Shown piece by piece: positions 17,799-32,406 of a stretch of 64,000 nucleotides of DNA (positions within the stretch are counted from its first letter, which is position 1; every line of letters starts with the position of its first letter). Below the pieces are notes generated by a model, which was not told the DNA's origin, searched no databases, and saw only the letters and a program-made list of their open reading frames with translations. Origin of the DNA: an uncultured archaeon (GTDB lineage Archaea > Asgardarchaeota > Lokiarchaeia > Sigyniarchaeales > SOKP01); the NCBI GenBank assembly GCA_964486045.1, contig CAZALK010000012.1:32001-96000 (forward strand). Direction: 5' to 3'. The position numbers and the translations under genes were made by a program.

Positions 17799-18716
17799 AT
17801 GAATGACTCAAATATTCAAGACTATATTAAAGCCGGAAAAGGAGTTATTGCTGCTAAAAAACTAGCAAAAAAGATTATTAAGCCAGGAGTAACTTTATTA
17901 GAAATTGCTAATAGATGCGAAGCAGAAGTCATCAAAAATGGGTGCGAATTATCATTTCCTATTAATTTATCATTAAATGAAATTGCTGCTCATTATAGTC
18001 CACCAATAGGAGATCGAACGATTGTTCCTGAAAATGGACTTTTAAAAATTGATATTGGCTCTCATTTTAATGGTTATATTGCGGATTCAGCTTTTACTAT
18101 TAATATTGATGAAGATCCGATCTTACAAAACTATGTTGATGCTGCAAAGGAAGCTCTTGATGCTGCTATAGAATTATTTACCCCCGGAATCAAATTATAC
18201 GAACTGGGAGAAAGAATTGCTCAAAAAATTATTAATCGTGGACTTAGGCCTATCACAAATCTTGGTGGTCATGAATTGAAGCAGTTTACTTTACATGCTG
18301 GACCTTTTATTCCAAATTATAAAGAGAGATTACATAATCAGTTATTAAAACCAGGAGATGCTTATGCGTGTGAACCATTTGCTACCTCTGGTGTTGGTAA
18401 AGTTGAAAATGGAAACATATCTTATATTTTCCGATTTGTAAGAAAAGTTAAGAGAAATGTGTCCTATGAGCATCAAGGATATATGAATAAAATTCAAAAA
18501 AATTTTGGTAATCTCCCCTTTTCTCCACGCTGGATAAATAATAACAAGATTATACCAAATGATAAAATCACTAGAACGATTGAATCATTTATTGGAAAGA
18601 AAATTTTGGATAAATATCCTATCTTACTAGAAAGAGCTAGAGAACCTGTAGCTCAAGAAGAACATACAATTATATTGGATAAAGATGGAAATAAAATTGT
18701 CACTACTAAAGAGTAA
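17799..18716 (+). CDS. map: Methionine aminopeptidase type II
   Basis: AAHYSP, KIDIG, IADSA, GH...LHAG, ACEPF, AQEEHT. Confidence 0.96.
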   Translation: MNDSNIQDYIKAGKGVIAAKKLAKKIIKPGVTLLEIANRCEAEVIKNGCELSFPINLSLNEIAAHYSPPIGDRTIVPENGLLKIDIGSHFNGYIADSAFTINIDEDPILQNYVDAAKEALDAAIELFTPGIKLYELGERIAQKIINRGLRPITNLGGHELKQFTLHAGPFIPNYKERLHNQLLKPGDAYACEPFATSGVGKVENGNISYIFRFVRKVKRNVSYEHQGYMNKIQKNFGNLPFSPRWINNNKIIPNDKITRTIESFIGKKILDKYPILLERAREPVAQEEHTIILDKDGNKIVTTKE

Positions 18717-19539
18717 TTTTATAGATACCATAAAAACTATAATTCTTTGTGCTGGAGAAGGAACCCGCATTAGGAATTTTTTTCCTAATATACCAAAACC
18801 ATTAATAAAAATAAATCATGAACCAATTCTTTGGTCCTTGATCTCCAATTTAATAAAATCATACATTACTTCAATTATAGTAGTAACTGGGCATTTAAAT
18901 GAACAAATTGAAAGCTATTTAAAACTAATCATACAAAAAGACGAGTCACTTAAAAGCAAGATTTTGATCATTAATTCAGGAGATGATTATAAAAAAGGAC
19001 CATTATATTCCTTCCTATCAACTACAAGAGAAAAAGGAATTCTAAAAAAAGATTTAATATATCTCGTTTTTCCAGGTGACACTTATTTTGAATCCAATTT
19101 AATTAAAGAATTAATCACATCCATTGATAATGACTCTAATTTTATCAAAAACAACTCGGTTATCTTCTATCAGGAATTACCGGGAAAGAGCCTAAAAAAT
19201 ACCACTAATTTGAATAAATCAATCTCAATTATTAAAACTGAAGAACTAGATTCATTGGAAATAGTAAAAGAAATCAGTCAATTAGATGTTACTTCAATTA
19301 GTGAAAGTGCATATTATAAACAGATCATACCTTTATTTGTATTTAATTATAAATTCATTGAAAAGATAATTGAAACCGAAACTAAAGCTTCTGTAAAAAC
19401 TATAAGAGAAATTATCAATATATTAATCCAAGGAAAACAGATACTTTATACATACTGCCTAAAATCAGACAATAGATTTTTTGATATTGATACTAGATCC
19501 GATTATTTAAGGATAAATCAAGAAAAAAGAGGACAATAG
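18685..19539 (+). CDS. NTP-transferase family (sugar-phosphate nucleotidyltransferase-like) protein
   Basis: LCAGEGTR...PKPL, PGD, FFDIDT motifs. Confidence 0.8.
   Translation: MEIKLSLLKSNFIDTIKTIILCAGEGTRIRNFFPNIPKPLIKINHEPILWSLISNLIKSYITSIIVVTGHLNEQIESYLKLIIQKDESLKSKILIINSGDDYKKGPLYSFLSTTREKGILKKDLIYLVFPGDTYFESNLIKELITSIDNDSNFIKNNSVIFYQELPGKSLKNTTNLNKSISIIKTEELDSLEIVKEISQLDVTSISESAYYKQIIPLFVFNYKFIEKIIETETKASVKTIREIINILIQGKQILYTYCLKSDNRFFDIDTRSDYLRINQEKRGQ
19519..19528 (-). terminator. Oligo-T terminator of the putative ncRNA
   Basis: TTTTTTCTT on the minus strand directly at the end of the terminal helix. Confidence 0.5.
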
Positions 19540-19974
19540 GTGCCCCGATTATTCCAGAGTAACTTTGATTCAATGGAAAACTATAAATATTTATCCTATG
19601 AAGCAACGAGGTAATCAAAGCTCCTATCTTAAATTTTAAATTCGTCAGAGTTCTTGGTGATTGGGGGTCTCGAGTATCAAGAAGAACCTGCCATCAACAG
19701 CATTCAATTTTTCAGTTGACTATAAGCCGAATACGAATTCAAAAACAAACTCATGTACTAATTGAAAAACTTATCATTTTTCTCCAAAGTGCTAATTCTA
19801 GGGATTCTATAACAGAATTATTGTAAAAAATCAAATATTAATATTCCGTATTTTTGTATCAAAAACAAATTTCCGCTAATAAGGAATAAGTAAATGTTAA
19901 TTATGTGATTAAATCGGTGCTAAACCCGTAGTTTAGTATAAAAATCCAATGCTAAACTAACCTATTGTTCCTCT
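19528..19974 (-). ncRNA. Putative ~447-nt structured non-coding RNA of unrecognised family
   Basis: 14-bp terminal helix (19528-19541 with 19960-19974), several nested hairpins, upstream TATA box, downstream U-tract, no ORF of 60 aa or more. Confidence 0.7.
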
Positions 19975-19983
19975 AACTAATAG

Positions 19984-20010: not shown

Positions 20011-20109
20011 TATATTAAAATTTTTATTACGGCAGAGTGTTTCTTTGAAAAAAGATTTATGAGGTTTTCAAAATAATATAAATATCTGCATTTATATTAT
20101 TTATAAGAC

Positions 20110-20502
20110 ATGAATAGTGATGCTGGTTTAGTCACAATCAGAATAAATTTATTCGGAATAGGTATATTAGAAGCATATCTCATTAGACATATTGCCCCAC
20201 TAACCACAGATGCGATAATTGATAAAATCCCATTTTCTATGAGAGGTAGATTCAGTTTTGGATCAAAAAAATATTGGATTCTTCCCGGATTAGGAATATA
20301 TAAAGGAACTAATAGTAAATCCGTTAAGGATGTAGATAAAGGTGATATTGTTTATAACCCAAAGACAGACGAGATGATAATAATTATAGAACGTCTTCAG
20401 ATGCCAAATAAAGTGAACAAGGTGGGCAAAGTGAATTCAAACTTAGAATTAGTACTAAATGCTAGGAATGGATTAAAGACGAAAATATCTAAGATATCCT
20501 AA
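20110..20502 (+). CDS. Cyclophilin-like fold protein (DUF369/UPF0288-like)
   Basis: RHIAPLTTDAIIDKIPF...KGDIVYNP...VNKVGKV pattern. Confidence 0.65.
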   Translation: MNSDAGLVTIRINLFGIGILEAYLIRHIAPLTTDAIIDKIPFSMRGRFSFGSKKYWILPGLGIYKGTNSKSVKDVDKGDIVYNPKTDEMIIIIERLQMPNKVNKVGKVNSNLELVLNARNGLKTKISKIS

Positions 20503-31050: not shown

Positions 31051-32406
31051 ATGGCTTCTCAAATTGATACAGAAATAGATACGGAATCACCATCTCTCTT
31101 TAATTATTTAAAACAAGAGATTCCTCTAGAAGATATTAAAGATTATGCTTCACCTAGACGTATTCAATCAATAGATTTTGTAAAAGGGTTCGCAATCGTT
31201 TTCATTATATTAGCTCATACCGCAATGAGTTGGTTAGATTCTGAATCTAAATATATATATGGAATTCTTTTTGCATTTCTGGATATTCTAGGTCCATCCT
31301 TATTTGTATTCCTTTCGGCGTTAAGTGTAATATTTAGTATTAAAAGGAAGGAAGGAATATTACCTCAAAAAATTATCCGGAATCGAATTTTTACTCGTGG
31401 GCTCGTAATGATTATTATAGGAATTCTAACTAATGTTGATGTAACAACAGGAAACATCTTTGGTTGGAATATTATTACATTCTTAGGGTTTTCACAAATT
31501 TTCTCATTTTATATTTTAAAGCTTAGTAAATCTAGAAGAATAATAATTGGAATGTTAATTATCATTTTATCCCCAGTTTTGAGAGGTTTACTTTTTGAAG
31601 GAAAAAAATTAGGAATTTTAGTATTAAGCTTTTTTCATTACTTAGTAACCTCCCCAACGCCTCATTTAACTCTTTTACCATGGATTTCGATAAGTTTCAT
31701 TTCTACAATATTTGGTGAATATATTTTTGAAGCTATGAACAAGGGAACGAAAGATGCATACGTGGGTTTATTCAGAATATTTTTCATTTGGGGTTTAGTT
31801 CTTATTTTGTCAGGGATTTTTCTTATTTTTCCAATCGGATTAAATCTTACTGATTGGCAACCTGGTTGGGCTTTACAAACTTTAGAAACCATGGAAATAT
31901 CTGAATATCCACATCTCGAATTATTATCAATTGCTCAGACCGGGATACCAATAATTCCTGGTATGCCAACCTTCTTGATAAGGGGAACAAGTGCTAATAT
32001 GCTTTATAATCAAGGTACTGCATTACTTATTATATCTATATTTTTCTATATTATTGACATTAAGAATAAATCTAATAATTTTTCAAATATGTTGATCTAT
32101 TACGGAAAAGTTTCACTAAGTTTATTCTTACTACACTTTGTTTTTATCCCGATATTTAATGCTCAATTTGGTATTATAATTTTCTTAATTTTCGGTCTTT
32201 CCTATATTGGTTATATGGGGCTGTTCATGTATCTCTGGATGGAGTTTGCCAAGGGAGTAGGTTCACCCGAATGGTTAATGGTGCAACTAGGACGAATAGG
32301 ACAAAAATCTGGGGAAACTGTTAAGAAGACAACTCAAAAAGTTTATAATAGGATTAAGAAGAAGGAGAAAGTTAAAAAGATGGAAGATTTTATGAGAAAA
32401 TTATAA
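31051..32406 (+). CDS. HGSNAT-like (DUF1624) transmembrane acyltransferase, paralogue 1
   Basis: RIQSIDFVKGFAIVFIILAH, PSLFVFLSALS, R.FTRG, YYGKVSL. Confidence 0.8.
   Translation: MASQIDTEIDTESPSLFNYLKQEIPLEDIKDYASPRRIQSIDFVKGFAIVFIILAHTAMSWLDSESKYIYGILFAFLDILGPSLFVFLSALSVIFSIKRKEGILPQKIIRNRIFTRGLVMIIIGILTNVDVTTGNIFGWNIITFLGFSQIFSFYILKLSKSRRIIIGMLIIILSPVLRGLLFEGKKLGILVLSFFHYLVTSPTPHLTLLPWISISFISTIFGEYIFEAMNKGTKDAYVGLFRIFFIWGLVLILSGIFLIFPIGLNLTDWQPGWALQTLETMEISEYPHLELLSIAQTGIPIIPGMPTFLIRGTSANMLYNQGTALLIISIFFYIIDIKNKSNNFSNMLIYYGKVSLSLFLLHFVFIPIFNAQFGIIIFLIFGLSYIGYMGLFMYLWMEFAKGVGSPEWLMVQLGRIGQKSGETVKKTTQKVYNRIKKKEKVKKMEDFMRKL

Follow-up and report, generated by a model that had tools for sequence, protein, structure and literature searches.

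A new family of large structured RNA encoded past aspS-map-NTP_transferase in one family of Promethearchaeia

The window considered here, a 64,000-nucleotide stretch from an uncultured archaeon of the Lokiarchaeia (positions 32,001 to 96,000 of contig CAZALK010000012.1, assembly GCA_964486045.1), contains a 570-nt gap between two plus-strand genes, that for an NTP_transferase (18685-19539), which has aspS and the methionine aminopeptidase gene (map) as its upstream neighbours, and a small cyclophilin-like gene (20110-20502). The gap very probably holds an RNA gene on the minus strand at 19523-19974, with a start predicted at around 19974-19976 and a 3' end predicted to fall within a U-tract. 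An initial annotation had proposed for this place either a novel large Asgard non-coding RNA (ncRNA) or an extremely diverged RNase P or signal recognition particle (SRP) RNA, and the former proposal is borne out by single-copy occurrence, synteny across genera, a covarying terminal helix and the lack of any Rfam match. The RNA represents a real and new family of large structured ncRNA which is confined, as far as searched, to one family of the Promethearchaeia (Lokiarchaeia).

Read along the minus strand, as are all RNA features below, positions 20008-19997 give AAGATTTAAATA, an archaeal promoter in which a purine-rich AAGA resembling a B recognition element (BRE) is followed by the TATA box TTTAAATA at 20004-19997, where the initial annotation had seen it, with 22 nt separating the box from 19974. 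A TATA box is present in 72/72 of the first-collected homologues, as TTTAAATA in 64 and as TTTATATA in 8, and its distance to a GGAYAAUAG core is 22-24 nt in most of them, rising to 25-28 nt (mostly 26-28) in those with a 5' extension of the terminal helix. Because the spacing from the promoter and the onset of the terminal helix coincide, transcription is predicted to begin with the first base pairs of that helix. At the other end the U-tract UUUUUU (19528-19523), a likely transcription terminator, comes directly after the 3' arm, again as annotated, and a T-run follows the 3' arm in every homologue.

The two arms of the terminal helix, here called P1, are AGAGGAACAAUAGGU (19974-19960) and ACCUAUUGUCCUCU (19541-19528), and this closing helix, likewise drawn in the initial annotation, is both conserved and covarying in the homologues, where its length is 10-15 bp. 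In an RNAalifold analysis of 35 diverse homologues P1 is the only alignment-wide helix, with 11 pairs of which 5 show double compensatory changes. The first three pairs occur as GC34/AU1, CG27/UG5/GC2/UA1 and AU34/UA1, and the fourth and fifth as UA16/GC10/AU3/UG2/GU1 and AU14/UA5/UG4/GC1. Variants of the paired arms include AGAC../..GUCU, GGACAUUAG/CUAAUGUCC and GGAGAAUAG/CUAUUCUCC, and arm haplotypes are found as GGACAAUAGG/CCUAUUGUCC, GGACAAUAGU/ACUAUUGUCC, GGACAAUAGAAG/CUUCUAUUGUCC, AGACAAUAGU/ACUAUUGUCU, GGACAUUAGU/ACUAAUGUCC, GGAGAAUAGUG/CACUAUUCUCC and GGACAAUAGUAAAGU/ACUUUACUAUUGUCC; some homologues carry in addition paired extensions at the 5' side of the helix (AGAGG/CCUCU, GAAAAGG/CCUUUUC, GAUGG/CCAUC). 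The alignments also settle the doubt about strand that the initial annotation had voiced, since U.G and G.U pairs in P1 (GGAUAAUAG with CUAUUGUCC) and in GCUUUGAUU/AAUCGGAGC would become A.C mismatches on the plus strand, and these pairs together with the promoter and the direction of the U-tract place the RNA on the minus strand. Column-pair and stacked-helix covariation scans of a 72-sequence MAFFT alignment were swamped by U-rich and purine-rich noise and by misaligned 5' arms, and anchored and domain-wise analyses were used in their place.

The NTP_transferase open reading frame (ORF) is convergent with the RNA gene, and its last codons (K R G Q stop) share about 12-20 nt with the 3' arm and U-tract, the TAG stop sitting within the complement of the 3' arm. 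The ORF ends exactly there in around half of the homologues and stops a few codons upstream of the arm in the remainder, and so coding cannot account for the invariant CUAUUGUCC. Nor does the RNA itself seem to be a message, as a conserved ORF is absent from the homologues, the longest ORF from an ATG having a median of 33 amino acids, and a small protein product is thus rejected. As a separate observation, the spacer that separates the RNA promoter from the start codon (ATG) of the cyclophilin-like gene (20040-20109) is nearly as conserved as the RNA; its RNA-sense strand includes TTATAAATAATGTAATTTCTGATATTTATATTATTTT, it holds a 20-nt imperfect palindrome (20064-20083 / 20090-20109), and it is probably the promoter or operator of the divergent cyclophilin-like gene.

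Within the 5.18-Mb, 99%-complete genome the 447-nt sequence has one full-length match, and by blastn the syntenic region was found in 23/24 sampled genomes of the same genus, whose alignment shows an invariant promoter and conserved blocks with variable stretches between them. For a wider survey a covariance model, R1, was built from the last 122 nt, that is the 3' domain (in the labels used from here on, f1, f2, f6 and f7 are families, g1, g14, g16 and the like genera, L loci, G genomes and C contigs). R1 matches 91/151 genomes of the order, every match being in family f1, and by genus it is found in 47/52 genomes of g1, 37/42 of g14, 5/8 of g16 and 1/1 of g23. A search for related loci with the NTP_transferase protein as query found none; AspRS as query gave loci, of which 80 were fetched, and position was judged only where the stretch reached far enough. 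In those of sufficient length the R1 match lies on the strand opposite to aspS at a constant distance past aspS-map-NTP_transferase. Diverged members were sought with a scan that combined a TATA box and a T-run with an inverted repeat of 9-10 bp over a span of 250-750 nt, and some loci that have no R1 match were found to carry diverged homologues at the same place; candidates were confirmed in g12, g17, g20, g21 and g22, and the homologue of g18 is at L123. A loose promoter and arm pattern run over the class matched as many sequences as its reversed control, and only those with a matching 3' arm were retained. In total around 90 homologues of 350-560 nt were collected, spanning at least 10 genera of the one family and all lying at one syntenic place past aspS-map-NTP_transferase.

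Outside family f1, R1 gave nothing convincing in four f2 genomes (three of them single-contig) and one f6 genome, the best match having E = 2.5. The f2, f6 and f7 regions beside the best NTP_transferase match contained no promoter plus inverted-repeat candidate, orthology of those matches being doubtful (26-34% identity). This negative, which covers closed sister-family assemblies (4.4 and 6.0 Mb) among others, holds for these queries only. No description of this RNA was found in the literature searched. Three public DNA runs place the organism and its relatives in marine sediment. A by-catch of the pattern search was a string of 45 nt that begins with a TATA box (TTTAAATATTTTATCAGAAAATCCAAGAAACTGCTCAGAGAATAG), is nearly unchanged in four g13 genomes and is present twice in one of them (for example G065:C4:42177-42221 and G060:C59:8477-8521); no relation of this string to the RNA was seen.

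A few nucleotides past P1 nearly all homologues have a hairpin loop of the motif CAUUGGUUU in most genera and GCAUUGGA in the genus of the window, flanked by stems that vary between homologues. In the window this is the hairpin at 19929-19959 that had been annotated, with the stem UAGUUUAG/CUAAACUA (19959-19952 / 19936-19929) and the loop motif GCAUUGG (19952-19946). Next comes a small hairpin, ACGG..CACCGA with a CGG/CCG stem (19914-19929), conserved in the genus of the window and paired by RNAalifold at 56-67, 57-66 and 58-65. The long-range helices CCGAUU/AAUCGG and UUAUUCC/GGAAUAA of the initial annotation can be written with the letters present and gain no comparative support, their nucleotides being taken by this local CGG/CCG hairpin and by the 3' hairpin.

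Further along, 77-79/89 homologues have a U-run of at least 6 and up to 12 at RNA position ~90-105, often as A-U7-GG. About 10 homologues have no such run or a reduced one, and among them is the window's own copy, where alignments with relatives identify a reduced remnant of the U-rich loop element, AAAUUUGUUUUUGAUAC, at 19856-19872. A stem of at least 4 bp encloses the U-run in 48/77, often placing it within a hairpin loop, and the stems differ by clade (UGUGA/UCACA, UCUGG/CCAGA, UCCGA/UCGGG, UUGAUA/UAUCAG). A helix of the variable arm, ACGGAAU/AUUCUGU (19812-19849), was read by eye and has moderate support, and its counterparts in relatives are ACAGA/UCUGU, CAGAAG/CUUCUG and AGGAA/UUCCU. The conserved block AGCACUUUGGAG (19782-19793), from RNAalifold on the genus and on g14, is in relatives the 3' strand of a central helix in which UGUUCC..AGUGCU pairs with AGCACU..GGAGCA, with the compensatory variants AGUGUU/AACACU and AAUGCU/AGCAU; the genome of the window has no 5' strand for it. 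The UUUUUCA..UGAAAAA arm of the initial annotation falls in a variable region.

Towards the 3' end is a second hairpin with an invariant loop element (19646-19690), with the stem CAGGUUCUU/AAGAACUCUG (19690-19682 / 19655-19646), also annotated at the outset, and the conserved loop UGAUACUCGAGACC (19679-19666). The loop has the form UGAUAC-NN-GAGACA, GAGAC being invariant, and the arm recurs in relatives with other stem sequences, among them UUGUUGUUUU/AAAACAGCAA, GCGUGUAUUUUUU/AAAAAAUGUGUGC and a U-run paired with an A-run. The 3' domain is a hairpin of around 100 nt (19536-19627), defined by RNAalifold, pair counts and the R1 matches, closed by AUAGGAGCUUUGAUU (19627-19613) with AAUCGGGGCACCUAU (19550-19536) and having an inner stem UUG.UUCA..GGA / UCC..UGAA.CAA (19606-19565). 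This hairpin, with its closure GCUUUGAUU/AAUCGGAGC, as a whole shows few compensations, which reflects high conservation. Here the initial annotation had paired CUUUGAUU with AAUCAAAG, an arm which is present and yet perfect in this genome only; the first strand stands, and its better and more consistent partner is AAUCGGAGC.

The 3' hairpin and P1 compete for the same nucleotides. The 5'-arm sequence has an internal copy, (C)AAUAG and two further nucleotides, which lies just 5' of GCUUUGAU and can lengthen the 3' hairpin by pairing with ..CUAUU, so that the last five pairs of the hairpin use the inner half of P1. The same competing arrangement recurs with other sequences in g17 (AUAGUAAUUCA/UGAAUUACUAU), L135 (CAUUGUUUC/GAAACUAAUG) and L197 (GUGGUAAAGU/ACUUUACUAU). 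The major genera differ at a single position, where the 5' arm compensates in every case and the internal arm in g1 and g16 but not in g14, and P1 is therefore the better supported of the two helices. The recurrence of the competitor suggests a folding intermediate or a conformational switch.

A search of the whole window against Rfam 15 gave 0 matches at gathering score; within the RNA region a threshold of E <= 10 brought up only chance-level small nucleolar RNA (snoRNA) matches, the best at E ~0.7, and 13 homologue loci from several genera gave 0 Rfam matches at E <= 1. The families left unmatched include U3, U6, RNase MRP, 7SK, Y RNA, vault, OLE, GOLLD, HEARO and the group II intron. Of these snoRNA-type matches, the SNORD24-like one (19641-19702, UGAUGG … CUGA) reaches 21.6 bits against a gathering score of 41, and since relatives have UUGAAU in place of UGAUGG a box C/D sRNA is rejected and the match looks like chance. 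The RNase P RNA and the SRP RNA are encoded elsewhere in the genome. A canonical archaeal RNase P RNA (RF00373; 147 bits) is found at C18:75104-75427, and the SRP RNA (RF01857) S-domain with its helix-8 motifs at C9:155907-156055 (locus L011:1501-1649) with 47.6 bits and E = 2e-9; in the window neither the RF00373 model (P4, CR-I to CR-V core) nor that of RF01857 has a match, and the P4 and helix-8 signatures are absent from the RNA, as the initial annotation had noted. Its second proposal, the diverged RNase P or SRP RNA, thereby falls. The SRP RNA of this genome matches the archaeal SRP model over the S-domain only, below the gathering score of 96.5, and so standard annotation would miss it.

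Other known classes were likewise set aside. ARAGORN finds neither a transfer RNA (tRNA) nor a transfer-messenger RNA (tmRNA) in the window. A Y RNA acting with Ro60 is not supported, as the TROVE domain (PF05731) was not found in the 99%-complete genome by a search that detected it in control genomes. For a U3-like guide of pre-rRNA the longest complementarity to pre-16S or pre-23S is 10-11 nt, no longer than with shuffled RNA. A kink-turn (K-turn) core for L7Ae can be fitted with GC-UUU-GA facing GA-GC, but GAUU/AAUC and UUU/GGA are fully complementary if read as one plain helix of 9 bp; a variant CGAAGC keeps this helix and breaks the G.A pair, and the plain reading is preferred. Look-alikes of U6 ACAGAGA/AGC and U2 GUAGUA (UGAUACAUGAGACA, AGC, GUAGUG) were seen by eye, have no model support and are taken as coincidence. 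None of these tests (pre-rRNA complementarity, Ro60, C/D boxes, K-turn) indicates a known role.

With regard to expression, a small public marine metatranscriptome contains a single 156-nt contig of which 104 nt are 96% identical to 19826-19929 and the remainder runs into the homologous, diverged central region; the flanking protein genes are uncovered, and uncovered parts of the stretch in this RNA run are not evidence of silence. The contig, which gives neither strand nor ends, is a weak hint of an abundant RNA in a close relative. As to the transcribed unit, the best-conserved blocks lie downstream of the U-run, TTTAWATA occurs internally in only 12/72 homologues and at scattered positions, which amounts to no conserved internal promoter, and internal runs of at least 5 T are frequent; with P1 joining both ends, a full-length RNA seems the most economical unit.

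Overall we consider it probable, with some reserve, that the gene makes a stable, trans-acting and multi-domain ncRNA of around 450 nt (350-560 in relatives), serving as a scaffold in a ribonucleoprotein (RNP) particle with binding of Sm-like protein and a switch of conformation. The functional unit would be the full-length transcript, the RNA would be the scaffold of the particle, Sm-like (SmAP/LSm) proteins would bind there with the conserved U-rich loop and the 3' U-tail as their likeliest sites, and the competing internal arm may let the RNA pass from a conformation with paired ends to one with the 3' hairpin and back. The scaffold proposal is suggested by the strong promoter, the paired and conserved ends, the 3' U-tail, the invariant loops and the A-U(n)-G element, and three proteins with an LSm domain are encoded in the genome; U-rich RNA is a ligand of archaeal Sm proteins (compare the review PMC3710371). 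As a mechanism, an RNP scaffold, probably bound by Sm-like protein, is the one that we would put foremost, tentatively and at well under even odds.

Several observations weigh against the overall explanation. The expression evidence is a single low-depth contig of a relative from a library that may carry DNA, and the ends are predicted. Internal U-runs of 7-12 should terminate archaeal transcription and so strain a model with one transcript. Folding of the single sequence is unexceptional (minus strand, z = -0.98; plus strand, z = -2.56), and with so unimpressive an energy the case rests on comparison, where covariation is strong in P1 alone and the other conserved inner helices are nearly invariant. 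The stems around the U-run are short and each alone does no better than shuffled controls, and Sm binding is read from a motif alone in an AT-rich genome where U-rich tracts are common. Finally the window's own copy has no counterpart to ~85 nt (about 19790-19875) present in its nearest relative L013, a gap that takes out the U-run (U-loop) hairpin and GUUCCUG.AGUGU, the 5' strand of the central helix; either both modules are dispensable, or the copy in the window is impaired or partly degenerate.

The U-run is also the pivot of an alternative with two products, in which one promoter would serve a transcript that mostly stops there to leave a ~100-nt 5' small RNA carrying the CAUUGGUUU loop, regulated read-through would yield the long form, and the competing helices would be a part of the decision. 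The position of a U-run of at least 6 in most homologues fits such attenuation, as do the mutually exclusive helices at the 3' end, and U-tracts are archaeal terminators (compare PMC8716108). We nonetheless hold it unlikely, given that conservation is highest in blocks which are downstream of the U-run and have no promoter of their own, that the 5' arm covaries with the far 3' arm, that in many lineages the U-run is inside a hairpin loop and not after one, that the contig from the RNA library reads through a T5 tract at the U-run position (in a G000-like lineage), and that the mean number of internal runs of at least 5 T is 3.3 per homologue. A different departure from the scaffold proposal dispenses with the protein, the RNA then being a ribozyme, or else a large RNA of the OLE, GOLLD, ROOL or raiA type that assembles with itself or binds a ligand. 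The size, multi-domain layout, invariant loops, narrow range and stand-alone gene are typical of orphan large RNAs, and the gene neighbourhood points to no protein partner; with no Rfam match to those types and no catalytic-core-like motif identified, we rate this reading as quite improbable. Regulation of the convergent NTP_transferase in cis, by an antisense action of the overlapping 3' end, has in its favour that the arrangement, with the 3' arm and U-tract over the end of the ORF at 18685-19539, is conserved, and is very unlikely all the same, as the overlap is merely ~12-20 nt, the ORF ends upstream of the arm in around half of the homologues and some 430 nt of conserved structured sequence lie outside any gene. 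The terminal inverted repeat, a size like that of RNase P and SRP RNAs and the AT-rich spacer might have spoken for a diverged RNase P or SRP RNA, for a miniature inverted-repeat transposable element (MITE) or for chance folding; these readings are already refuted and of negligible probability, the RNase P and SRP RNAs being elsewhere and the sequence single-copy, not spread in many MITE-like copies, and syntenic with covariation across genera, with the same position kept in all related loci long enough to show it.

In kind the RNA resembles the bacterial OLE, GOLLD, HEARO, ROOL and raiA RNAs, which are several hundred nucleotides long with invariant loops between variable arms, have stand-alone genes and a narrow range, and were likewise recognised by comparative genomics ahead of function; it differs in being archaeal and unmatched in Rfam 15, with its own terminal helix GGACAAUAG/CUAUUGUCC and CAUUGGUUU loop. 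With the archaeal RNase P RNA and SRP (7S) RNA it shares a stable form of a few hundred nucleotides, paired ends and strong promoters, and differs in its lack of their signatures. In Y RNA and the bacterial YrlA, too, the ends pair in a terminal stem of conserved sequence with a U-tail behind it, and what remains is a variable module, whereas the present RNA is three to four times longer, has no Rfam Y_RNA match and occurs in a genome with no TROVE/Ro60 gene. The suggested likeness to the eukaryotic small nuclear RNAs (snRNAs) U1, U2, U4, U5 and U6, of the Sm and LSm classes, is in a conserved and putatively single-stranded A-U(6-12)-G/A tract flanked by stems, a 3' oligo-U tail, an own strong promoter and the encoding of Sm-fold proteins; in contrast to them the RNA has no detectable similarity to snRNA models, is two to four times longer than most, and has its U-run usually in a hairpin loop. 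To our knowledge a spliceosomal function is neither known nor expected in these archaea. A further and speculative step, for which we would give rather long odds, is that the RNA is the subunit of a previously undescribed Asgard RNP of the Sm class, with a SmAP/LSm ring on the A-U(7-12)-G loop and the 3' U-tail and a switch by the competing helices, as an analogue or relative of the small nuclear RNP (snRNP) design.

Large conserved structured RNAs of uncertain role are, as far as we know, rare, and very few have been described from archaea. The intergenic regions of Asgard metagenome-assembled genomes (MAGs) hold unannotated genes for stable RNAs that are missed by pipelines based on Rfam, and the ~90 sequences, together with the scan for promoter and terminal repeat and the model of the 3' domain, can serve to seed an Rfam family. 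No known organisms are more closely related to eukaryotes than the Asgard archaea, and eukaryotic cells depend on many RNA-protein machines. An RNA kept through the whole history of one Lokiarchaeial family is a concrete candidate for a new RNP, and, if the Sm-class reading is true, it would stand to the snRNP design later used by eukaryotes as an archaeal analogue or even as a relative.

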